NCBI GenBank assembly: GCA_028714475.1
Contig: JAQTNC010000001.1
Location: 86,678 to 150,677, forward strand
Length of the DNA stretch: 64,000 nt
Direction: 5' to 3'
Source of the DNA: Patescibacteria group bacterium
Lineage (GTDB): Bacteria > Patescibacteriota > Patescibacteriia > SG8-24
Shown: positions 4,690 to 61,791 of the stretch, piece after piece
How the letters are laid out: each line of letters begins with the position of its first letter
How positions within the stretch are numbered: the stretch's first letter is position 1
Translations under genes and position numbers: made by a program
Notes under the pieces: generated by a model
Told to the model about the DNA's origin: nothing
Seen by the model: the letters and a program-made list of their open reading frames with translations, nothing else
The model's database searches: none

Positions 4690-4757
4690 GCCCCTCGACT
4701 CCGCTTCGCTCCGCTCGGGTAAGAAATACGTTCTGGCCCGAGCCTGTCGAGGGGCAG
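4690..4757. repeat. palindromic intergenic repeat, family 1, copy A (full element)
   Basis: cccctcgactccgcttcgctccgctcggg - spacer - cccgagcctgtcgagggg; arms are inverted complements. Confidence 0.8.
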
Positions 4758-5351: not shown

Positions 5352-5414
5352 ACCCCTCGACTCGCTACGCTCGCTCGGGGAATATTTGTTCTTGCCCGAG
5401 CGAAGTCGAGGGCA
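5352..5414. repeat. family 1 palindromic repeat, copy B (full); its right arm supplies the GAGGG SD of the next gene
   Basis: acccctcgactcgctacgctcgctcgggg...cccgagcgaagtcgagggcaag. Confidence 0.8.
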
Positions 5415-5962: not shown

Positions 5963-6025
5963 AACCCTTCGACCCTTCGACTCCGCTACGCTCCGCTCAG
6001 GGCAGGCTCCCACGCTCAGGGAATA
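5963..6025. repeat. family 1 palindromic repeat, copy C (left arm duplicated)
   Basis: cccttcgacccttcgactccgctacgctccgctcaggg...cgctcagggaata. Confidence 0.7.
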
Positions 6026-8471: not shown

Positions 8472-8549
8472 GTAGCGGCAGGGTTTACCCCTGCACCACC
8501 ATAATTCAGACTCTTGTTACGGTGGTGGCGGGATAAACCCGCCCGCTAC
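8472..8549. repeat. family 2 REP-like hairpin (GTAGCGG...CCGCTAC), ~29-bp imperfect stem
   Basis: gtagcggcagggtttacccctgcaccacc / ggtggtggcgggataaacccgcccgctac. Confidence 0.75.
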
Positions 8550-8554
8550 AATAT

Positions 8555-12694: not shown

Positions 12695-12708
12695 GTTGGT
12701 TGGGATTA

Positions 12709-12737
12709 GGTGGCGCGCGACAGGGTCGCGCCGCTAC
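12709..12737. repeat. family 2 repeat, half copy (right arm)
   Basis: ggtggcgcgcgacagggtcgcgccgctac, near-identical to the right arm at 14996-15024. Confidence 0.6.
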
Positions 12738-14906: not shown

Positions 14907-15024
14907 CGGTGCAAAGACGGGGCGGGGTTGTAATACCCAGCTCCGTTTTGAATAGAATGAACGTAGCGGCCGGACCCTGTCCGGCACCACGAATAAGGTG
15001 GTGCGCGACAGGGTCGCACCGCTA
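14903..15024. repeat. family 2 REP-like composite hairpin between rpmE and prfA
   Basis: gtagcggtgc...gcaccgctac outer; inner gtagcggccggaccctgtccggcaccacg / ggtggtgcgcgacagggtcgcaccgctac. Confidence 0.7.
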
Positions 15025-15032
15025 CAAATCAT

Positions 15033-16100: not shown

Positions 16101-16116
16101 TATGCCCGAATCCACG

Positions 16117-16157
16117 GCTCCAGCACTCCAGCGCTCCAGCACTCCAGCACTTCACCA
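16117..16157 (+). repeat. tandem 9-mer repeat (CCAGCACTC/CCAGCGCTC) x4, CAGCACT family
   Basis: ctccagcactccagcgctccagcactccagcacttcacc between prfA stop and the next start. Confidence 0.7.
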
Positions 16158-16167
16158 AGCCGTCATC

Positions 16168-16836
16168 ATGGCGGCTGGCCTCGGCACGCGCCTGCGTCCG
16201 CACACGCTCGAGACGCCGAAGCCGCTCTTGGCCGTCGCTGGTCGGCCGATCCTAGAATGGAACATCGATGCCTTGCCTAAGGAAATCGAGGAAATCATCC
16301 TCGTCGTCGGCTACCTACAAGAAAAAATACGCGAACATTTCGGCGCCGAGTGGGGTAGCCGACGTGTGCGCTACATCGAGCAGGCGGAACTCAAGGGCAC
16401 GGGCCACGCGCTCTTCGCCTGCCAGAACCAGCTGCACGACCGCTTCCTCGTGCTGAACGGCGACGATTTGTACGGCGTGGACGATTTGGCGGAACTCGCG
16501 CGCCACGACCTCGCCATTCTCGCCAAGGAGACGAACAAATCCTGCCGTTACGGCGCGTTCCACACCGACGAGCAGGGGCGGCTTCTTGCCATCATCGAAG
16601 GCGGCGAAACCCAGCCCGGCGCGCTCGTGAACGCCGGTGCTTACGTCCTCGACCGCGACATCTTCGACTGCCCGCTCGTGCCCATCCGCGACGGGAAGGA
16701 ATTTGGTCTGCCGCAGACCGTCGTCCTGCTCGCCCAAAAACGCCCGGTGGACATCGTCCGCGCCAACTTCTGGGTGCCCATCGGCTTTCCGGATGATTTG
16801 GAAATCGCGACCGCAGCGCTGCAGGAGCGGCTATGA
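16168..16836 (+). CDS. sugar-phosphate nucleotidyltransferase (RmlA/GlmU-like N-terminal domain)
   Basis: MAAGLGTRLRP (GxGTRLxP) motif; alternative ATG at 16102 would add a repeat-encoded N-extension. Confidence 0.7.
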   Translation: MAAGLGTRLRPHTLETPKPLLAVAGRPILEWNIDALPKEIEEIILVVGYLQEKIREHFGAEWGSRRVRYIEQAELKGTGHALFACQNQLHDRFLVLNGDDLYGVDDLAELARHDLAILAKETNKSCRYGAFHTDEQGRLLAIIEGGETQPGALVNAGAYVLDRDIFDCPLVPIRDGKEFGLPQTVVLLAQKRPVDIVRANFWVPIGFPDDLEIATAALQERL

Positions 16837-22995: not shown

Positions 22996-23062
22996 AATGG
23001 TGGCCTCCCAAAGGCTTGGTCGAGTAATCTTTATCGTTCTTGCCCGACCCGCGTGGAGGGCC

Positions 23063-23150
23063 TGCCCCTCGACTCCCCCTTCGACTCGCTTCGCTCGCTC
23101 AGGGTCCGCTCGGGGAAGAACGGGGGGGCTCCGCTCAGGGAATATTGTTT
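23063..23150. repeat. family 1 palindromic repeat, copy D (expanded; ~60 nt near-identical to the copy inside rlmN, opposite orientation)
   Basis: ctgcccctcgactcccccttcgactcgcttcgctcgctcagggtccgctcgggg... Confidence 0.8.
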
Positions 23151-23879: not shown

Positions 23880-24170
23880 GGGGTCGCCCTTTAAGGCCGG
23901 TCGAGCGAGCGACGGCTCGGTCCCCCTCACCATTCCGACGCCGGAATGGTGAGGGGGCGTCGCGAGCGAAAGTTATTCAGCCGAGCGAAGCGAGCCCCGG
24001 AATCCGCCGCAGGCGGATATCCGGGGGAAGGCCGCCGCTGGAGCGGCCGAGCGTGCCGAAAGGGCGACCCCACCCGGCCGGACGTTTGTGGTTGACGTTG
24101 CCCCTCGACTTCGCTCGGGGCAGAATAATTGAATGGATCCTCCCCGCAGTACTGCGGGGAGGATAACATT
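23880..24170. repeat. repeat-rich noncoding cluster: 14-bp perfect hairpin (23925-23958), family 1 fragments (23958-23998, 24100-24125) and family 3 palindrome cccgcagtactgcggg (24141-24168)
   Basis: seen in sequence. Confidence 0.65.
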
Positions 24171-30376: not shown

Positions 30377-30458
30377 TAGAGTGCTGGAGGAATTGTTTGG
30401 GTCCCTATTTGTTTATCAAGTTTTTTCTTCAGTACTTCAGCACTTCCCCGCTCCAGCA
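30377..30458. repeat. CAGCACT-family repeats (agtgctggag ... cttcagtacttcagcacttcc ... ctccagcact)
   Basis: inverted copies flanking a ~60-nt spacer. Confidence 0.55.
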
Positions 30459-30484
30459 CTTCCTTTTTTGTGGTCTGAAAAAGC

Positions 30485-31457: not shown

Positions 31458-32594
31458 ATGGCTGACTATCCAAAAATCCGTCATGAAATTTTCCAAGCGC
31501 TTTTTCCGGAAGCGCCGGCTTATCGCTGGCGTCAGGCTGAGGAAGCGCTTTTTCGGCCGGGCGCGACAGGCTGGTCAGACGCCACTTCCCTGCCCCGCGA
31601 GATGCAGACGACGCTTGCGGAAAAGATGCCGTGGATTTCCGTAGCGCCTGACAAAATTCTGTCGAACGCGAACGGCGACACGCACAAGGCCGCCTTGCGC
31701 CTCGCGGACGGTGCCATCATCGAAACGGTGCTCATGCGCAACCGCCGCGGCCAATGGACAATCTGCACCTCGAACCAGGTCGGCTGCGCCATGCGCTGCG
31801 CCTTCTGCGCCACCGGCCGGCTGGGCTTCACCCGCAACCTGACGGCGGACGAAATCGTGGACCAATATCGATTTTGGAATACCTGGCTCTCCGCCTCCTC
31901 GTTCTCCCCCGAGCGGACCCTGAGCGAGCGAAGCGAGTCGAAGGGGGAGTCGAGGGGCAGCAGAGATACTAAGAATGAGGATGATGTGTCCGCATCGACT
32001 CGCATCAGCAACCTCGTCCTCATGGGCATGGGCGAACCGCTGGCGAACTACGACAACGTGAAGGCCGCGCTGAAAACGTTGCTCAAACAAACAGACCTCG
32101 GCGCGACGCGCGTCACCGTTTCCACCGTTGGCCTTCTGCCGGGTCTCGAAAAACTACTCGACGACCCTGACTGGCCGCCAGTGCGTCTCGCCATCTCGCT
32201 CCATAGCGCCGATCAGGCCGTGCGCGAAGGCATCATGCCGACCACCATCCCCGACTACCTGCCGAAGCTCGGCGACTGGGTGCGCCGCTATCTCAAGAAG
32301 CACGGCAACCGCCGCCACCATCTCACTTTCGAATATGTCATGCTGGCGAACGTTAACGACGAGCCCCGCCACGCGGCCCAACTCGCCGGTTTCGCGAATG
32401 CCGCCGGCCACGTGAAAATCAACCTCATTCCGTACAACTACACTGACTCGCAATTCTCCGGCTCGGCCGACGAGGTGATCGCCGACTTCCAGAATTTTCT
32501 CGAGCAGAAAGGGGTAACCGTAACCGTTCGCCGCTCGATGGGCCAAGACATCGCCGCCGCGTGTGGTCAGCTGGCCAATAAACTATTGAAATAA
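31458..32594 (+). CDS. rlmN: 23S rRNA/tRNA m2A methyltransferase RlmN (radical SAM), with a ~28-aa in-frame insertion encoded by a family 1 repeat
   Basis: CAMRCAFCATG radical-SAM cluster, MGMGEPL; extra ~28 aa between the EIV and ISNLV segments relative to E. coli RlmN. Confidence 0.9.
   Translation: MADYPKIRHEIFQALFPEAPAYRWRQAEEALFRPGATGWSDATSLPREMQTTLAEKMPWISVAPDKILSNANGDTHKAALRLADGAIIETVLMRNRRGQWTICTSNQVGCAMRCAFCATGRLGFTRNLTADEIVDQYRFWNTWLSASSFSPERTLSERSESKGESRGSRDTKNEDDVSASTRISNLVLMGMGEPLANYDNVKAALKTLLKQTDLGATRVTVSTVGLLPGLEKLLDDPDWPPVRLAISLHSADQAVREGIMPTTIPDYLPKLGDWVRRYLKKHGNRRHHLTFEYVMLANVNDEPRHAAQLAGFANAAGHVKINLIPYNYTDSQFSGSADEVIADFQNFLEQKGVTVTVRRSMGQDIAAACGQLANKLLK
31904..31958. repeat. 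family 1 palindromic repeat, copy F, inserted in-frame in rlmN
   Basis: cccccgagcggaccctgagcgagcgaagcgagtcgaagggggagtcgaggggcag, reverse complement of copy D. Confidence 0.85.
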
Positions 32595-35238: not shown

Positions 35239-35270
35239 AAAAGGCCCGCCACCCGGCGGGCTTTTGGTTT
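35239..35270 (+). terminator. rho-independent terminator after nusG
   Basis: gcccgcc-accc-ggcgggc followed by TTTTGGTTT; near-identical to the terminator after rplA. Confidence 0.8.
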
Positions 35271-35297: not shown

Positions 35298-35362
35298 TAT
35301 AGTGCTGAAGATGGGGGCGCTGAAGTACTGAAGAAAAAACCTTCAGCACTTCAGCACTCCAG
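35298..35362. repeat. CAGCACT-family palindromic hairpin
   Basis: agtgctgaag...gctgaagtactgaag-aaaaaacc-ttcagcacttcagcactccagc. Confidence 0.65.
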
Positions 35363-35378
35363 CAATTCCCCACTCTCT

Positions 35379-39274: not shown

Positions 39275-39299
39275 GTAGCGGGGTAAACCCGCCCGCTAC
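39275..39299. repeat. family 2 minimal hairpin (gtagcgggg-taaaccc-gcccgctac) between rplK and rplA
   Basis: seen in sequence. Confidence 0.6.
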
Positions 39300-39348
39300 G
39301 ATAAATTGTGGGAGGCCCGAATACGGCCGTCCGCACCACGAAAAGCAT

Positions 39349-40046: not shown

Positions 40047-40077
40047 CCGACCCCGCCACCCGGCGGGGTTTTGGTTT
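40047..40077 (+). terminator. rho-independent terminator after rplA
   Basis: ccccgcc-accc-ggcgggg followed by TTTTGGTTT. Confidence 0.8.
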
Positions 40078-47682: not shown

Positions 47683-47875
47683 GGGGCACTTTCAAAAAAG
47701 CCTGGGGTGGCTTGGTTAAGCCAACTGGTGATTCTGGTTCTAACGTCCTCAATCTTGCCGCCGGGCATTGACGAAACCCTTCCTCTGGGCGTCTTCAGTG
47801 ATACAATGGGGCAAAGATATTTGGCGACTAGCCCAGCCAATCGGCCCTACAAACTACAAACCACAAACTGACCCT

Positions 47876-49558
47876 ATGCCCTTCTCCCCCGAGGAACGCG
47901 CCCTCCTGGAACCCTACGTCACCGACTGCGAACGCGATGTTTTCGCCGTGCGCAACCTGAACGGCATCGTCGGCGCGGTCTACGCGCGCTACAGCCGCGC
48001 GGCCACCGGCTTCCGCGAGACCCTGCTCAAGGAATTCGTCGAGGCCGGCGAGCTCGACATGAGCAAGGCGCAGGATCTCATCGAGCGCGTGCTCATCGCC
48101 TTCGGCGACGATTCGATCGGCGAACTCGAAGGGGCGCACGTCTCCTTCGAGAACATCTCCATCCTCGCGACCAAGGAAATCGAGGACCGGCGCATCGGCG
48201 GCTCACCCATCGAGAAATCCACGCGCTACGTCATTTATGACCAGCCGGGGCCGGACGGGTACTTCCGCTATTACCGCGACCCGGCCGTGGCCGCCTCGCC
48301 GCTCGGCGCTAAGTATGACGAGACGATGGGCTTCATCTTCCGCACCTACGCCGAACTCGTGGAGCCGATGCAGGACTATTACCGCGGGCTCAAGCCGATG
48401 GAGGAAGCAGAGTACGACATCAACGGCGACGGCGTCAAGGAACGCCTGACTGACTGTGAAAAGGAAGCCGACCAGAAGGCCTTCCGCCGCACCTACCAGA
48501 ACGACATCCGCACCAAGGCCTGCGACGCCTTGCGCTATCTCCTGCCCGTCGCCACGCTGACCAACGTCGGTGTCTTCGGCAACGGCCGCTTCTTCCAGAA
48601 CGTGCTCACCCACTGCTATACGAGCGCCCTGCCGGAAGCCCAGCGCCTCGCCGAGGCGACGCACGAGGAGCTGAACAAAATCATCCCGCGCTACGTGAAG
48701 CGCGCGGCCAAGCAGGAATACAATGCCGCCAACCATGAACGCATGCGCCGTTTCACCGCCGCCCTGCTCGCGGGAACCAAACCGGAGACATCCGATGAGG
48801 TTGAACTAATCGACCGCGGCGAGGCCGCCATCGCGGAACGGCTGTCCCAAGGACCGGTGGACGTTGCCGCCGTGCGCGCCGCGCTCCAAGGCGAGGACGA
48901 CGCACTGCTCATCGCGGCCATGCTCTTCCCGTATGCCGAACATCCGCTGGGACAGCTGCACCGTTTCGTGAGCGGCCTCGCGCCGGAACAGCGCCAGGTC
49001 ATCGTGGACAACTTCATCGGCGAACGCCGCAACCGCCGTGACCGCCCGGGGCGGCCGATGGAAACCGGCTACCCGTGGACGTTCGACATGCTCACCGACT
49101 TCGGCACTTACAAGGATTTGATGCGGCACCGCGTCACCACCCAGCTCCGCCAGAAATTCACGCCCAAGCTCGGCTTCGCCGTGCCGCCTGATCTTGAGGC
49201 AGCCGGTTTCGCCCACCGCGCGCTCGAATGCCGCGACCGCGCCGCCGAGCTCTACGACGCGCTCCTGCCGGAATTCCCCGAACAGGCCAGTTACGCCACG
49301 CTCCACGGTTCGCTCGTCCGCTGGGTCATCGGCTTCAACGACCGCGAGGCCGTCCACCTCATCGAGTTGCGCACCACGCCCCAGGGCCACCCGTCCTACC
49401 GGAAAGTCGCCCAACTGCTCCACCGAGCCATGGCCGCCCGGTCGCCGTGGCGCGCCGCCATCCTCAAGTTCGTCGACCACAACGATTACTTCTGGAGCCG
49501 CGCCGATTCCGAAGCCCGCCAGCGGGCCCAGGAACGCGCGCTTGACGAGAAAAAATGA
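47876..49558 (+). CDS. thyX: FAD-dependent thymidylate synthase ThyX, long tandem-domain form
   Basis: RHR...S ThyX signature region (LMRHRVTTQLRQ), ThyX-like segments in both halves, 560 aa. Confidence 0.7.
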   Translation: MPFSPEERALLEPYVTDCERDVFAVRNLNGIVGAVYARYSRAATGFRETLLKEFVEAGELDMSKAQDLIERVLIAFGDDSIGELEGAHVSFENISILATKEIEDRRIGGSPIEKSTRYVIYDQPGPDGYFRYYRDPAVAASPLGAKYDETMGFIFRTYAELVEPMQDYYRGLKPMEEAEYDINGDGVKERLTDCEKEADQKAFRRTYQNDIRTKACDALRYLLPVATLTNVGVFGNGRFFQNVLTHCYTSALPEAQRLAEATHEELNKIIPRYVKRAAKQEYNAANHERMRRFTAALLAGTKPETSDEVELIDRGEAAIAERLSQGPVDVAAVRAALQGEDDALLIAAMLFPYAEHPLGQLHRFVSGLAPEQRQVIVDNFIGERRNRRDRPGRPMETGYPWTFDMLTDFGTYKDLMRHRVTTQLRQKFTPKLGFAVPPDLEAAGFAHRALECRDRAAELYDALLPEFPEQASYATLHGSLVRWVIGFNDREAVHLIELRTTPQGHPSYRKVAQLLHRAMAARSPWRAAILKFVDHNDYFWSRADSEARQRAQERALDEKK

Positions 49559-50270: not shown

Positions 50271-50333
50271 GCCCTGAGCCTGTCGAAGGGCGTATTTTTT
50301 GCATTCCCTTCGACTTCGCTCAGGGAATATAAG
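50271..50333. repeat. family 1 palindromic repeat, copy G (arms in swapped order)
   Basis: gccctgagcctgtcgaaggg...cccttcgacttcgctcaggg. Confidence 0.7.
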
Positions 50334-53708: not shown

Positions 53709-53738
53709 GCTATCAGACCAACCCTGCCAAATGCCATC

Positions 53739-53766
53739 CCCCGCAGTACTGCGGGGGATGGTCATC
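53739..53766. repeat. family 3 perfect palindrome (ccatcccccgcagtactgcgggggatgg)
   Basis: core cccgcagtactgcggg shared with 24141-24168 and 59307-59334. Confidence 0.75.
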
Positions 53767-53830
53767 AATAGTATGTGGAATATATTTGAAAAGCCTCCCG
53801 CCAAAGCGGGAAGCTTTCGTGTCCGCGGGT

Positions 53831-54127: not shown

Positions 54128-55108
54128 TCACCGGCTACTTTTGCCCCTGTTTTCGCGTCTGTTCTTGAGCCAAGCACCAGCGAGCCGAAAGGCCGTTTTC
54201 GGCGATGCAACCCAACGAATCGCGGCGTCTCTTTTGAACCAGGCCTGCTGTCGCTTGGCAAAACGGCGCGTGTCGCGCTTGATTCTGCGCACCGCTTCCT
54301 CAAGGGTCGTCTCGCCACGCAGGTATCCGCCCAACTGACGATGACCGAGGCTCGTGAGCACCGGCGCGTCCCAGCCGTAACGGCGACCGAGACGCTGCGC
54401 CTCCTTGAGGAGCCCGTCTTTCATCATGCGGTCAACGCGCTGGTCTATCCGCCGATACATTTCCTCGCGTGGCCGACTGACGCCGATCTTCAGTACGTCG
54501 AAAAGGGGTTCTCCTTTTTGTTGAAGGTCGGTCATGGTGCGTCCGGTCGCCCGCATGACCTCTAGCGCACGAATGATGTAACGAGGATTCCGCCCGGCTC
54601 GCGCCGCATAGGCAGAGTCTTTCGCAACTAATTCTGCCCCGAGCTTGTCGAGGGGCAGTTTGGCACATGCTGCTCGGAACTTCATGTCCGGTGGAGCTTC
54701 CGGCATCTGAAAATTATCCGCTACGGCGCTCACATACAATCCGGTGCCGCCGCAAAGAATTGGCAGACGGCCGCGCTTGATGATTTCCCGCGCTTTCCTG
54801 ACCGCCAACGTCTTGAACTCCGCGAGCGTGATTGGCTTGGCTGGCGACCGGAAAGCAATGAGATGGTGTGGCACGCCTTGCGCGATATACACGCGCCGTG
54901 CGCCGCGCTTTACCCACTTACCAGGAATGATGTCCGCGCCGATATCCAAACCACGATAAAACTGCCGCGAGTCCGCGGAAATGATTTCGCCGTTGAATTT
55001 CCTGGCGAGCGCAATCGCCAAGTCCGTCTTCCCCGCCGCCGTCGGACCGAGAATAACAAGTAGCGGCGGGGTGCGGCACGAAGACTTGGAGTGCCGCACG
55101 GGCGGCAT
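54128..55108 (-). CDS. miaA: tRNA dimethylallyltransferase
   Basis: GPTAAGKT P-loop and MiaA core; start at internal ATG 55108. Confidence 0.88.
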   Translation of the reverse strand: MPPVRHSKSSCRTPPLLVILGPTAAGKTDLAIALARKFNGEIISADSRQFYRGLDIGADIIPGKWVKRGARRVYIAQGVPHHLIAFRSPAKPITLAEFKTLAVRKAREIIKRGRLPILCGGTGLYVSAVADNFQMPEAPPDMKFRAACAKLPLDKLGAELVAKDSAYAARAGRNPRYIIRALEVMRATGRTMTDLQQKGEPLFDVLKIGVSRPREEMYRRIDQRVDRMMKDGLLKEAQRLGRRYGWDAPVLTSLGHRQLGGYLRGETTLEEAVRRIKRDTRRFAKRQQAWFKRDAAIRWVASPKTAFRLAGAWLKNRRENRGKSSR

Positions 55109-55378
55109 GGGCCGCCCCGGGTTTGGCGAGCAATTTCCGATTATATGCGAGCTGAACTGTCCCCGCACCACCTTGGACGAAAGTCGATATTTCAGCCGTA
55201 AGCTACAAGCCATAAGCCTCAAGGGAGCGTCGCAGGGAATGGTTTCCTGCGACTTAATGATAGCCCTTCAGGGAAAGCCTAACCGACCGGAGCCTCAAAT
55301 ACAAATCGAGGCCCGCGCGAAGCGCAGGCCTCTCAATCTCAAGGGCTAAAGTCAGAGTTCAAAGGGCAAGGTCGAGTG

Positions 55379-59289: not shown

Positions 59290-59300
59290 ACAAGATTGAA

Positions 59301-59340
59301 AACCGCCCCCCGCAGTACTGCGGGGGGCGGTTTTGATTTG
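59301..59340 (+). terminator. rho-independent terminator built on the family 3 palindrome
   Basis: ccgccccccgcagtactgcggggggcgg followed by TTTTGATTTG. Confidence 0.8.
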
Positions 59341-59363
59341 AGCAGCACGCATACGCATGTTCT

Positions 59364-59393
59364 TCCCCGAGCGGAGCGCAGCGGAGTCGAGGG
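59364..59393. repeat. family 1 repeat, copy H (left arm, reverse orientation)
   Basis: cttccccgagcggagcgcagcggagtcgaggggc. Confidence 0.7.
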
Positions 59394-59472
59394 GCGGGCG
59401 GCAGGCCCTCCACAAGGTCGGGCCAGAACAAAAGCCGCCGATTTCGCCGGCGGCTTTCTCATTGTGCCGAGA

Positions 59473-61290
59473 CTACCCTTTCCTCTTCGCGATCTCCTCC
59501 GTCACCTTCGTGACGAACGCCTTCACGGTCATGCGCGTTTCCTTCTGCTGGCCGCGCTTGCGGACGTTCACGGTCTTGAGGGTCTTTTCCTTATCGCCGA
59601 CCACCAGCATATACGGCACCTTGGCCTTCTCAGACTTGCGAATCTTGTACCCGACCGTCTCGCGCGAATCGTCGGAAACGGCGCGGATGCCGGCGGCCAC
59701 GAGCTGGTCGGCGAGCTTCTTCGCGACTTTCCAGTGGTCCTTGCCGACCGGGATGACTTGCACCTGCACGGGAGCGAGCCAGGTCGGAAAAGCGCCGGCG
59801 TAATGCTCGATGAGCACGGCCATGAAGCGCTCGATGGAACCGAGGATGGCGCGGTGAATCATCACCGGCCGCTTCTTCTGGCCGTCAGTATCGGTGTATT
59901 CGAGCTGGAATCTCTCCGGCAGGTTGAAATCGAGCTGGACCGTGGCGAGCTGCCATTCGCGGCCGATGGCGTCCTTAGCCATGAAGTCGATCTTCGGCCC
60001 GTAGAACGCCGCTTCACCCACGCCGACGGTGTAATCCATCTTGAACTCCTTGAGGATTTTGGCGAGCGTCCCTTCGGCTTTGGCCCAGACTTCGGGCGAG
60101 CCGAGCACTTTCTCCGGATGCTCTGGGTCGTGCGTGGAAAGCCGCGCGCGAAGGCTCATCTTGAAGACCGCGTAGAACTTGCTGATGATCTTGTAGACGT
60201 TCTTCACTTCCTGTTCCACCTGATCAATCCGGCAGAAAAGATGGCCGTCGTCCTGGGTGAGCGAACGCACGCGCGAAAGGCCCTGCAGCTGGCCGGTGTT
60301 CTCGTCGCGGTAGCAGGTCGTGACTTCGCTGTAGCGGATGGGCAGGTCGCGGTAACTGCGCGGCTGGGAGGCGAAGATTTGCGTGTGATGTGGGCAGTTC
60401 ATCGGCTTGATGACGAACGCGTCATCGGTCTTCTTCGAAGTGACGTGGAAGAGGTCGTCCTGAAACTTGTCCCAGTGACCGGAGGTCTTGTAGAGGTCGG
60501 TCTTGGCGAGATGCGGAATCCAGACGCGCTGGTAGCCGAACGGCTGCTGGAGGCCCCAAACGAAGGTCTCGAGCTCGCGGCGGACGAGCGTGCCGCGCGG
60601 GGTGAACATCGGCAGGCCCGGACCGACGAGGTTCGAGAAGGTGTAGAGGTCGAGTTCTTGACCGAGCTTGCGGTGGTCGCGCTTCTCGGCTTCCTCCATC
60701 AGCTTGAGGTGCGCGTCGAGTTCTTCCTGCGTCGCGAAGCACAACCCGTACACGCGCTGGAGCATCGGGTTGTTCTCGTCACCGCGCCAGTAAGCGCCGG
60801 CGACTGACTTCAGCTTGAACGCGCCGATTTCCTTGGCGTTCGCCACGTGAGGGCCGCGACACAAATCCGTGAACTTGCCGGTGCGGTAGATGCTGACAAC
60901 GTTGGGTTTGGCGACGTCGATGTCCCCCGCCTCCTCCTCGCGCACGGCAGTCGTACCCTTCTCCTGGATGGCGCGCAGCAACTGGACCTTGTATGGCTGG
61001 TTCAACCCGTCGAAAAGCTCAATGGCCTTTTCGATGGGCATCTCCTCGCGCACGAACTCAACCTTGCGCGCCTGCAGGTCGCGCATCCGCTTCTCGAGCT
61101 TCTGGAGATCGAGCGGGGTGAGCGGTTTCGGCAGATCAAGGTCGTAATAGAAGCCGTGCTCCACGACCGGCCCGACGCCAAATTTGGCTTCGGGGTAAAG
61201 CTCCTGCACGGCGGCCGCGAGCAAATGCGCGCAGGAATGGCGCTGGATCTCGATGGCCGGTAAATCGACGGCTTTTTCCTTGTTAGACAT
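59473..61290 (-). CDS. thrS: threonine--tRNA ligase lacking the N-terminal TGS domain
   Basis: HSCAHLL, class II aaRS core and anticodon-binding domain; start set at Met48 (MSNKEK) ~20 aa before HSCAH. Confidence 0.88.
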   Translation of the reverse strand: MSNKEKAVDLPAIEIQRHSCAHLLAAAVQELYPEAKFGVGPVVEHGFYYDLDLPKPLTPLDLQKLEKRMRDLQARKVEFVREEMPIEKAIELFDGLNQPYKVQLLRAIQEKGTTAVREEEAGDIDVAKPNVVSIYRTGKFTDLCRGPHVANAKEIGAFKLKSVAGAYWRGDENNPMLQRVYGLCFATQEELDAHLKLMEEAEKRDHRKLGQELDLYTFSNLVGPGLPMFTPRGTLVRRELETFVWGLQQPFGYQRVWIPHLAKTDLYKTSGHWDKFQDDLFHVTSKKTDDAFVIKPMNCPHHTQIFASQPRSYRDLPIRYSEVTTCYRDENTGQLQGLSRVRSLTQDDGHLFCRIDQVEQEVKNVYKIISKFYAVFKMSLRARLSTHDPEHPEKVLGSPEVWAKAEGTLAKILKEFKMDYTVGVGEAAFYGPKIDFMAKDAIGREWQLATVQLDFNLPERFQLEYTDTDGQKKRPVMIHRAILGSIERFMAVLIEHYAGAFPTWLAPVQVQVIPVGKDHWKVAKKLADQLVAAGIRAVSDDSRETVGYKIRKSEKAKVPYMLVVGDKEKTLKTVNVRKRGQQKETRMTVKAFVTKVTEEIAKRKG

Positions 61291-61425
61291 ATCGGGAAAG
61301 ATGTATTTATAGCCGAAATTATGATACGCCCCGAGGATAGATTTGGCAACCAAAAGAAGTGTCCTTGACGTAGGCCGTATTTTCCGTAAGATTAGCCCAA
61401 ACGCAAGAAGACGGAGGAATCGAAG

Positions 61426-61791
61426 ATGCAATCATTGCCCGTTATCGACGCGCTGGCTCTGGGCGTAGTTCTGGAGGCCGCCAAACGCAGGGGCCAAACC
61501 GCAGAAGTCACTAAAAGAGACGAATGGGCGGGCGGCATCGCAGGCCGAACCCAATATCTTCTCCAGGTAGAACTGCCGGAAGCGATTCGCCAAGGTTATC
61601 AGCTTCACCAGGAGGAGGTCACGTTCTCCGTTGAAGGGCCCATGTCCAGCAACGCCGAAAAGGTCATGGAAGCCGCCGTGGCGGAGCTGCGCCGAGCCGG
61701 CAAGCAGGTTACTGACCCAAGAAAGGGGTTCGGCTGGATCAGCAAGACCGTATCGGTTCCGATTGTTTGCGCCACCCTCACCCTCTGGTGA
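61426..61791 (+). CDS. hypothetical protein
   Basis: GGAGGAA SD 8 nt before ATG 61426. Confidence 0.5.
   Translation: MQSLPVIDALALGVVLEAAKRRGQTAEVTKRDEWAGGIAGRTQYLLQVELPEAIRQGYQLHQEEVTFSVEGPMSSNAEKVMEAAVAELRRAGKQVTDPRKGFGWISKTVSVPIVCATLTLW

Follow-up and report, generated by a model that had tools for sequence, protein, structure and literature searches.

A REP-like repeat unit within the rlmN coding sequence of a Patescibacteria genome, and the occurrence of its 28-nt core in other bacterial phyla

We have examined a stretch of 64,000 nt of DNA (the window) from a Patescibacteria group bacterium (assembly GCA_028714475.1, contig JAQTNC010000001.1, positions 86,678 to 150,677), and observed that the open reading frame (ORF) of its rlmN gene crosses, with no stop codon, a copy of a short repeat that also occurs between two genes of the same window. 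The repeat belongs to a family of small units resembling REPs (repetitive extragenic palindromes) of other bacteria, and we consider it probable that one such hairpin-forming unit was copied into rlmN from elsewhere in the same genome and was tolerated there. As we envisage the event, a single unit of about 60 nt, in which a GTTCT head precedes an outer unit that carries a 28-nt core nested at its tip, would have been copied into the coding sequence; the copy would have survived because five of its six frames have no stop, because its length keeps the reading frame, and because it entered a loop of variable length between helix 1 and strand 2 of the protein. The result would be an RlmN with 20-29 extra surface residues. 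The positions of the features discussed here are collected in Table 1.

The rlmN segment, its intergenic twin and the host protein

A repeat search of the window aligned the rlmN segment with its intergenic twin as inverted copies of 68 nt with 96% identity. By direct reading, positions 31900-31960 differ from the intergenic copy at 1 base in 61, and a 34-mer of the repeat is exact at both sites, as against no match in 100 shuffles. Outside the shared segment, the flanks of the two copies align no better than shuffled sequence. An earlier note on this DNA had claimed an in-frame repeat in rlmN and a second copy in intergenic DNA, and the positions, the ORF read-through and the 96% match all agree with that description. 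The intergenic copy does lie between two convergent ORFs, and between the terminator-like hairpins with which each of these is provided; no terminator-like site was found in the rlmN insert.

The twin forms part of a complete tail-to-tail doublet with 12-nt complementary ends, and the rlmN copy is equivalent to precisely one unit of the pair, plus a few bases. The ends of the shared segment fall within 1-8 nt of unit boundaries, the unit in rlmN spans 20 codons (60 nt), counting from GTTCT through ...GGGGCAG, and the shared segment is open in 5 of 6 frames. In both the rlmN copy and the twin, an outer unit CCCCGAGCGGA...GGAGTCGAGGGG holds a complete inner unit, the 28-nt core CCCTGAGCGAGCGAAGCGAGTCGAAGGG. 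The 26-mer immediately 3' of the repeat segment is unique in the window; this, together with the shuffle-like alignment of the flanks before 31893 and after 31960, leaves the idea that the insert is a decayed full doublet unsupported. Only 60-68 nt of the insert, coding for residues 146-168, can be traced to the repeat. The earlier note had assigned to it approximately 28 extra residues, SFSPERTLSERSESKGESRGSRDTKNEDD; the peptide was read correctly, but its repeat-derived portion is limited to residues 146-168.

We compared the window protein with its 120 most similar proteins from a collection of 5.8 billion, all of which are RlmN of the Patescibacteria type and 52-62% identical to it. The loop from W140 to R182, which precedes the RISN-MGMGEPL strand, is 41 residues long in the window RlmN; its modal length of 11-12 residues is seen in 76 of the 120 homologues, and it is longer than 14 residues in 40. 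The window protein is thus some 29 residues longer here than is usual, and about 9 of these, following residues 146-168, cannot be assigned to the repeat. With one exception (P0069, see below), the repeat sequence in the loop has no match among the 120 homologues, and the closest orthologues, 58-62% identical, carry no unit at all, in keeping with the earlier expectation that the segment would prove lineage-specific. We also noted long, repeat-like loops with other motifs (VEGFKGVE...PSKPSKP; EMRSEKLRT) in the homologues P0033, P0070 and P0010. Because these lie at the same position, the RlmN loop may be a general sink for short repeats.

The variability of this position, and the unrelated long loops of other orthologues, might be taken to mean that the segment is an old, lineage-specific RlmN loop from which the intergenic copy, or the whole repeat family, was derived. 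We regard this as highly improbable, since there are 11 units in the window, since the core occurs at no fewer than 120 loci of many phyla, and since 60 identities in 61 positions far exceed what the divergence of the gene would lead one to expect (62% protein identity with the nearest orthologue). The likely direction of transfer is thus from the repeat family into the gene, and the same 60/61 identity suggests that the event was recent.

Apart from the insert, the window rlmN looks functional, with a catalytic apparatus that appears intact. C110, C114 and C117 form the radical-SAM CX3CX2C Fe-S motif, C103 and C369 align with C118 and C355 of the Escherichia coli enzyme, and all five cysteines and MGMGEPL are invariant columns in the 120-homologue alignment. 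The insert lies between the Fe-S cysteine motif and MGMGEPL, as had been stated, and divides the match to the TIGR00048 profile into two stretches (261 bits, the curated cut-off being 290 bits). Likewise, the solved RlmN relatives 6fz6 and E. coli 3rf9 align in two pieces, broken at query residues 137 and 178-180. An identical protein, from a Patescibacteria group bacterium MAG, is on deposit as RlmN. An AlphaFold2 model built from the 120-sequence alignment (pLDDT 91.2, pTM 0.90) finds its best structural matches in RlmN 6fz6, 5hr6 and 3rfa, with target TM scores of 0.80-0.88. In this model, the insert lies between the helix 130-145 (helix 1 of the radical-SAM barrel) and the strand 183-188 (strand 2 of the barrel); it has nearly no secondary structure, and pLDDT means of 60, 51 and 55 in 10-residue blocks. 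Modelling, suggested earlier as a check for a surface loop, therefore placed the insert in a loop, of low confidence, between these two elements. The inserted residues are hydrophilic and, judged from the model, probably disordered and on the surface. From the general geometry of TIM and radical-SAM barrels, the helix-to-strand loop would face away from the cluster and the substrate, opposite the active site. RlmN is dispensable in E. coli, and the description of rlmN as an essential gene is overstated.

The source of the sequence is a metagenome-assembled genome (MAG), and repeats can mislead assemblers, which raises the question of a chimeric join, a misplaced repeat or a binning artefact. 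Such an error is very hard to credit here. Both flanks of the segment are rlmN and remain in frame across it, so that the chimera named in the earlier note as a refutation is not credible; a repeat of 61-68 nt is shorter than normal reads. In addition, as described below, the core is found in frame in a gene of a cultured isolate (RecQ of Tunturibacter), and units occupy the same RlmN loop in independent assemblies.

The repeat family and the structure of its core

A covariance model made from the core detected 11 units of the family in the window at E < 0.01, of which 9 are intergenic and 2 lie in genes (rlmN and miaA). In a crude map, ORFs cover about 87% of the window, and the occurrence of 2 or fewer of 11 units in ORFs then has an approximate probability of 3e-7. 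The units follow the pattern (C/T)GTTCT - N - S - CCCYGAGC - core - GTCGARGGG - S, and are found either alone or in head-to-head or tail-to-tail pairs separated by short spacers. When folded as single-stranded DNA, inverted pairs were more stable than shuffled sequences (z = -4.1, -5.4 and -6.3), whereas the rlmN copy, folded with Watson-Crick parameters for DNA, was no better than shuffles (z = 0.0 and -1.3). The term "palindromic", applied in the earlier note to the rlmN segment, thus fits the intergenic inverted pairs of the family better than it does the rlmN copy alone. We searched Rfam 15 as well, and obtained no match at the gathering score in the window and only chance-level matches (E > 1) around both copies.

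The unit in miaA (ORF 54128-55222, minus strand) is identical at 25 of 27 positions to the intergenic copy at 4731-4757. It could not be regarded as a length insertion, as there is no net change in length relative to solved MiaA structures; either it replaced native sequence or it occupies a variable helix. Elsewhere in the window, the un-nested outer unit at 59365-59394 has GCGCAGC at the place where nested copies hold the 28-nt core.

We scanned species-representative genomes for the pattern CCCTGAGCGARCRAAGYGAGTCGAAGGG, and found the exact core at 120 loci or more, with about ten phyla among the matches listed. These include Acidobacteriota, Planctomycetota, Gemmatimonadota, Armatimonadota, Actinomycetota, Bacteroidota, Chloroflexota, Myxococcota/"Deltaproteobacteria" and Omnitrophota, together with bins labelled "Gammaproteobacteria" and many Patescibacteria. 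Some of the core-bearing Patescibacteria genomes have a GC content of about 40%; the core, at 68% GC, is therefore not of native composition in such genomes. Cultured strains are represented by Tunturibacter empetritectus, Sediminibacterium magnilacihabitans (four contigs) and Humibacter albus. As the viral collection contained one copy of the core, phages are no obvious vector. Flanks of the core are unrelated between loci, apart from a bias for a purine at -1 (107 of 123 loci), for a pyrimidine at +1 (95 of 123) and, on the 5' side, for GCYTG, TTTA or GTCA. The nested arrangement seen in rlmN recurs at L037, L076 and L117 and in another RlmN gene (P0165), and a pattern spanning both junctions retrieved it from a soil metagenome contig (L124). 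Elsewhere, the enclosing outer unit begins with CGTCATTCC... or TGTCA... (L017, L037, L076, L117, L007). At seven loci (L032, L053, L050, L061, L077, L078, L115) the core adjoins or directly follows apparent tRNA gene ends (GGTTCGAATCC...), and at two Chloroflexota loci a tRNA-adjoining core is followed by more unit-like repeats joined by TTTAT.

Evidence for structure in the core comes from covariation. At positions 11 and 17, for which the search pattern permitted all four combinations, the 125 matches comprised 100 with G-C, 21 with A-T, 2 with G-T and 2 with A-C. Diverged copies at the same loci showed double changes at pairs 1-28 (C-G to T-A), 2-27, 4-25 and 8-20. In an alignment of 24 sequences, the structure ((((..((..((...))..).)..)))) had 94% of its cells paired, with compensatory changes in 5 of the 8 core pairs and 14 compensated cells; the covariation score observed was reached by none of 500 shuffles, and collapsed in the slid controls. 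By these sequence comparisons, the outer stem and an apical GCGNAGC mini-hairpin are well supported. The middle of the core is ambiguous: two tandem 5'-GA-3'/5'-GA-3' steps with a bulged T and a shifted 3-bp Watson-Crick helix fit equally. We lean towards the G.A steps, in view of how stable sheared G.A pairs are known to be in YGAR context. Nearest-neighbour folding of single units gave z values of approximately 0, so that the case for structure rests on covariation and not on predicted energy. At the covarying pairs G-T is no commoner than A-C, which hints, weakly, that the constraint is felt by DNA, or by both strands, and not by a single RNA strand.

The d(GCGAAGC) mini-hairpin was reportedly described, with its tandem sheared G.A pairs, by Hirao and co-workers in the 1990s from isolated oligonucleotides. 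The apex of the core is likewise GCG-N-AGC, with closing pairs (11-17) that covary and a middle loop base that is free. The arms of the core also hold two 5'-YGAR-3'/5'-YGAR-3' steps, YGAR being the favoured context for stable tandem sheared G.A pairs, although the 3-bp Watson-Crick register suits these arms equally well. We know of no link of this mini-hairpin to an interspersed genomic repeat.

In-frame copies in other genes

At least 12 of 126 sampled copies of the core lie inside recognisable genes. The core falls within Pfam envelopes in a CCA-adding enzyme (PolyA_pol head, L092), an Mpl/MurC-type ligase (L116), the N-terminal domain of ArgRS (L104), GrpE (L018) and a GNAT/FemAB-like protein (L083), and between domains in RecQ of the Tunturibacter isolate (L012) and in an FGGY kinase (L100). 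By alignment to solved structures, it contributes 4 additional residues to a beta-turn of an Fe/Mn superoxide dismutase (L039) and 7 to PGK (L085, L111); a further copy, judged by eye, is carried by DHFR (L073). Four of the 5 open frames are used in these genes (LSERSESKG, PERAKRVEG, LRLASLAQG, PSTRFARSG), in both orientations, as would fit insertion at the level of DNA followed by selection for an open frame. The two PGK genes, which carry the core at the same site, encode proteins that are 66% identical and agree at 47% of third codon positions, yet their units are identical at 28 of 28 positions; a nucleotide-level constraint, gene conversion or repeated insertion is needed to account for this.

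A further instance concerns RlmN itself. The homologue P0069, 55% identical to the window protein, has ACCCTGAGCGAACAAAGTGAGTCGAAGGG in the same loop and in the same frame. Among its 120 closest relatives, which are Moranbacteria-related and 64-80% identical to it, 78 have a 12-residue loop, 23 have unit-like loops (TLSLSKG, TLSPVEG, TLRDSKG and others), and 17 have other long loops, in some of which a unit has plainly received another insert at its tip. Examination of the DNA of five relatives confirmed short units such as CCCTGAGCTTGTCGAAGGG. The RlmN genes L001 and L125-L129 come from Moranbacteria-related bacteria, in whose RlmN loop the units are short, long or nested. An "empty" 12-residue loop, encoded by CGC CCT GAT CTC TCC GAA CGG, is found in the relative P0122. 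Since no unit is present in the orthologues nearest to the window protein, the event in the window is independent of that in the Moranbacteria-related clade, and on this comparison of sequences the same RlmN loop has been colonised twice.

That unit-derived loops are kept in so many of these RlmN proteins could mean that the insert has been domesticated, the loop, or a hairpin in the mRNA or DNA, being useful in translation, mRNA stability or binding of the RNA substrate. The conservation of the PGK unit at the nucleotide level beyond codon need would agree with this, as would selection on pairing in the core, to which the covariation points. We nevertheless think domestication unlikely for the window copy, which is young and near-identical to its intergenic counterpart: the loop peptide is of low confidence in the model, the peptide varies with frame and orientation from gene to gene, most RlmN orthologues have no insert, and the loop is expected on the barrel face opposite the active site. 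The insert, which gives no sign of a function in RlmN, is best read as a passenger, that is, as selfish or neutral DNA that would be tolerated by its host protein.

Table 1. Positions of the rlmN insert, of related units and of associated genes (window coordinates unless a locus is named)
Feature	Position	Strand	Remarks
rlmN ORF, host of the insert	31458..32594	+	378 aa; keeps C103, C110/C114/C117, MGMGEPL (189-195), C369
Segment shared with the intergenic copy	31893..31960	+	encodes A146-G168, ASSFSPERTLSERSESKGESRG
GTTCT head	31901..31905	+	precedes the stem in most units of the window family; read from sequence
Outer unit, 5' half, CCCCCGAGCGGA	31906..31917	+	by comparison with the un-nested unit 59365-59394
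Inner 28-nt core, CCCTGAGCGAGCGAAGCGAGTCGAAGGG, nested in the outer unit	31918..31945	+	in-frame reading (T)LSERSESKG; 50.2 bits, E 1e-11
Outer unit, 3' half, GGAGTCGAGGGG	31946..31957	+	identical nesting in L124, L037, L076, L117
Remainder of the over-long loop, SRDTKNEDDVSAST	31961..32000	+	repeat origin not shown; ancestral loop must be part
Intergenic twin of the rlmN segment	23062..23129	-	repeat search, exact 34-mer
Complete tail-to-tail doublet containing the twin	23036..23121	-	termini GTTCTTGCCCGA / TCGGGGAAGAAC pair together
Head-to-head pair, intergenic	4691..4754	.	between pgk and a membrane-protein ORF; DNA fold z = -4.1
Head-to-head pair, intergenic	5353..5413	.	DNA fold z = -5.4
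Single long-type unit, intergenic	5973..6002	-	covariance model
Single short unit, intergenic	24101..24120	-	downstream of FtsW/RodA-like ORF; covariance model
Tail-to-tail pair of short units, intergenic	50272..50325	.	DNA fold z = -6.3
Short unit inside miaA	54637..54655	+	reads LPLDKLGAE
Un-nested outer-type unit, CCCCGAGCGGAGCGCAGCGGAGTCGAGGGG	59365..59394	+	part of tail-to-tail doublet 59358-59430 between convergent ORFs
PGK gene, Daviesbacteria MAG	L085 6846-7886	-	core at same site as L111
PGK gene, unclassified MAG	L111 3-869	-	core at same site as L085
RAYT-like Y1_Tnp gene, Acidobacteriota locus with core	L042 6998-7543	-	PF01797, 27.6 bits; 3.8 kb from unit, no flanking units

Origin of the insert and relation to known repeats

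We next consider how a unit might have been copied. Our preferred guess, which we put forward tentatively and by analogy to REPs and REPINs, is a structure-guided, single-strand copying of the hairpin unit by a trans-acting enzyme; the unit-precise ends of the shared segment and the conserved purine and pyrimidine at the base of the stem favour recognition of a folded, single-stranded unit by such an enzyme. Several observations weigh against this and, in part, against the insertion account as a whole. We found no transposase among ten ORFs neighbouring the units and no Y1/HUH gene in the 64-kb window. In 933 kb of DNA (the window plus fetched loci), a small hidden Markov model and a RAYT-like query detected a single Y1_Tnp gene, which is not linked to a unit. 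No target-site duplication or terminal inverted repeat is visible at the ends of the rlmN copy, and the approximately 27 nt that follow the repeat (31961-31987 or so) have no match elsewhere in the window. The nearest orthologue is 62% identical, and no close relative supplies an empty site. Also, the source genome is a MAG.

That no transposase was found next to the units, and that the rlmN copy shows neither a target-site duplication nor terminal inverted repeats, would be expected if the same insertion had come about with no transposase, through stalled replication and template switching or through gene conversion between hairpin units; a site of microhomology would then receive the unit sequence, and copies would be kept homogenised. 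This route, a close second in our ranking, is possible but somewhat doubtful. CGTC-type REPs are reported to have no dedicated transposase (PMC3733652). The nesting of units at hairpin tips, in the window as at L037, L076, L117 and L124 and in RlmN P0165, also agrees with template switching, as does the identity of the PGK units despite their diverged codons. Furthermore, the unit arm CCCGAGC reads Pro-Glu, as in the common ancestral loop motif (H/R)PEL. This microhomology of the unit arm with the (H/R)PEL codons, attractive for the window copy, is missing, however, from inserts of the Moranbacteria type, whose reading frame is a different one, and for that reason we retain it only within the present alternative. 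A recognised unit more easily explains the agreement of the segment ends with unit boundaries to within 1-8 nt, and template switching offers no obvious explanation for the occurrence, in about ten phyla, of exact 28-mers whose flanks are unrelated. By either route, the probable outcome remains a unit of the genome's own repeat family copied into rlmN and tolerated there.

The earlier note had likened the segment to the Rickettsia palindromic elements (RPEs), which are described as being about 100-150 bp (RPE-1) or as CGTC-tagged short REPs (RPE-4, RPE-6) (Ogata et al. 2000, 2002, summarised in PMC10969869 and PMC3733652). The likeness is one of behaviour: the repeat is found both in intergenic DNA and in frame in housekeeping genes, the host proteins are intact, and a surface region is affected. 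The rlmN copy is, as in the RPE definition, an in-frame insertion in a conserved gene with its ORF preserved. It is set apart from the described RPEs by its length of 60-68 nt, its (C/T)GTTCT head, its lack of a CGTC tag and its purine-rich, mismatched stem, as also by its Patescibacteria host and a 28-nt core common to about ten phyla.

Similar considerations apply to REPs. GTAG and CGTC REPs are made of units of 20-40 nt, either solitary or joined into head-to-head or tail-to-tail dimers; most lie between genes that converge or run in the same direction, some lie within ORFs (about 10-30 aa), and their families are common to distant phyla (PMC3733652). In all these respects they resemble the repeats described here. 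CGTC REPs have an unpaired CGTC (or TGTC/CCTC) tag, a perfect stem of 8-9 bp that starts with A-T, a 4-5 nt loop and a CCA tail (PMC3733652); the window units have none of these four features. The rlmN copy, TCGTTCTCCCCCGAGCGG...GGGGCAG, has instead a stem interrupted by purine-purine steps, a GAA triloop at its apex and a CAG tail. Neither Patescibacteria nor the core sequence is among the families of PMC3733652. A distant link to the CGTC superfamily is possible, since CGTCA or TGTCA stands at the start of outer units in other phyla. We conclude that the RPE-like character claimed for the segment extends to its behaviour but not to membership of a described RPE or of a CGTC or GTAG REP family, the tag, stem and loop being different.

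GTAG REPs and REPINs are characterised by a GT(A/G)G head and a cognate RAYT gene, REPINs being lineage-specific and extragenic (Bertels & Rainey 2011, PMC3116915; Nunvar 2010, PMC2817692). The inverted doublets of Table 1 (those beginning at 4691, 5353, 23036, 50272 and 59358) are like REPINs in their short spacers and long hairpins, but they lack the GT(A/G)G head, two of the 11 units lie inside genes, and the core crosses phyla. Nor is there a RAYT gene flanked by units in the window, and the one Y1_Tnp gene in the 933 kb is unflanked. ERIC/RU elements (Delihas 2007, PMC2759123) and bacterial miniature inverted-repeat transposable elements, or MITEs (PMC10969869), are 100-170 bp long with terminal inverted repeats and often target duplications. 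They share with the present family the character of non-autonomous repeats with several open frames and in-frame fusion with host ORFs, and differ from it in that the unit here is 19-60 nt with no detectable target-site duplication. The single-unit rlmN copy does not show the 15-30 bp terminal inverted repeats and target duplication by which MITEs are defined.

Intragenic REPs are already on record for several species, with tRNA synthetase and repair genes among their hosts (Di Nocera, De Gregorio, Rocco 2013, PMC3733652), and we find the core in frame in at least 11 genes other than rlmN. The statement that such in-frame colonisation is rare outside Rickettsia therefore cannot be maintained. 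The rlmN insertion by itself is a new instance of a known event, RPE-like or intragenic-REP-like in behaviour and neither by membership. In the literature that we searched, we found no description of a repeat insertion of this kind in Patescibacteria, and none of a cross-phylum core, of its covariation and purine-rich architecture, of the nesting or of the recurrence in housekeeping genes. Searches with the exact core sequence and with the peptide gave no match, and a search for GCGAAGC gave only REP tables with GTAG heads.

The window contains other repeats and long ORFs, which we record separately. Tandem 8-nt units, CTCCAGCA/CTTCAGCA, occur at 16102-16169, 30427-30470 and 35333-35376, and a tandem 8-nt repeat lies approximately 50 nt upstream of the ORF that precedes rlmN. 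Two small repeat or hairpin families unrelated to the units are GGTGGCGCGCGACAGGGTCGCGCCGCTAC (12705-12737 and 14993-15025) and GTGGCGGGATAAACCCGCCCGCTAC (8525-8553 and 39275-39303). An unrelated, terminator-like repeat, CCCGCCACCCGGCGGGCTTTTGG, is present at 35245-35270 and 40052-40077, and an unrelated palindrome, CCCCCGCAGTACTGCGGGGG, at 53738-53769 and 59295-59326. A ThyX-like ORF (47768-49558, plus strand) is unusually long at 596 aa, and the match to its Thy1 domain is divided into two stretches; in the ThrRS ORF (59473-61431, minus strand) the core domain has 212 residues for 175 profile positions; these two ORFs may carry lineage-specific inserts of their own.

In summary, the window offers a clean and apparently recent case in which a copy of a repeat has joined a conserved enzyme without breaking it. 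The cross-phylum core with its covariation and purine-rich architecture, the nesting of units, and the recurrence in housekeeping genes (in the RlmN loop twice) merit systematic follow-up, yet they do not constitute a categorically new system. With many filled and empty sites, the family provides a tractable system for studying the movement of REP-like elements that have no known transposase. It bears on how proteins gain surface loops, and it explains recurrent peptides (LSERSESKG, PERAKRVEG, LRLASLAQG, PSTRFARSG, PFDSLRSLR) that otherwise pollute annotation and alignments.

A wider proposal, which we hold to be conceivable and no better than doubtful at present, is that the core is a pan-bacterial nucleic-acid module constrained in sequence and structure, a hairpin with a GCGNAGC tip and probably with tandem G.A steps, which is still being copied, perhaps independently of a transposase and with a preference for hairpin tips, and which enters and persists in the loops of housekeeping proteins, where it is conserved at the nucleotide level beyond codon need. 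If so, the tip preference would account for the nested units, and conservation within genes would imply either a function or a homogenising process that acts on coding DNA. Protein-coding palindromes would then be no oddity of Rickettsia, and would represent a general route by which proteins gain loops, especially in Patescibacteria.

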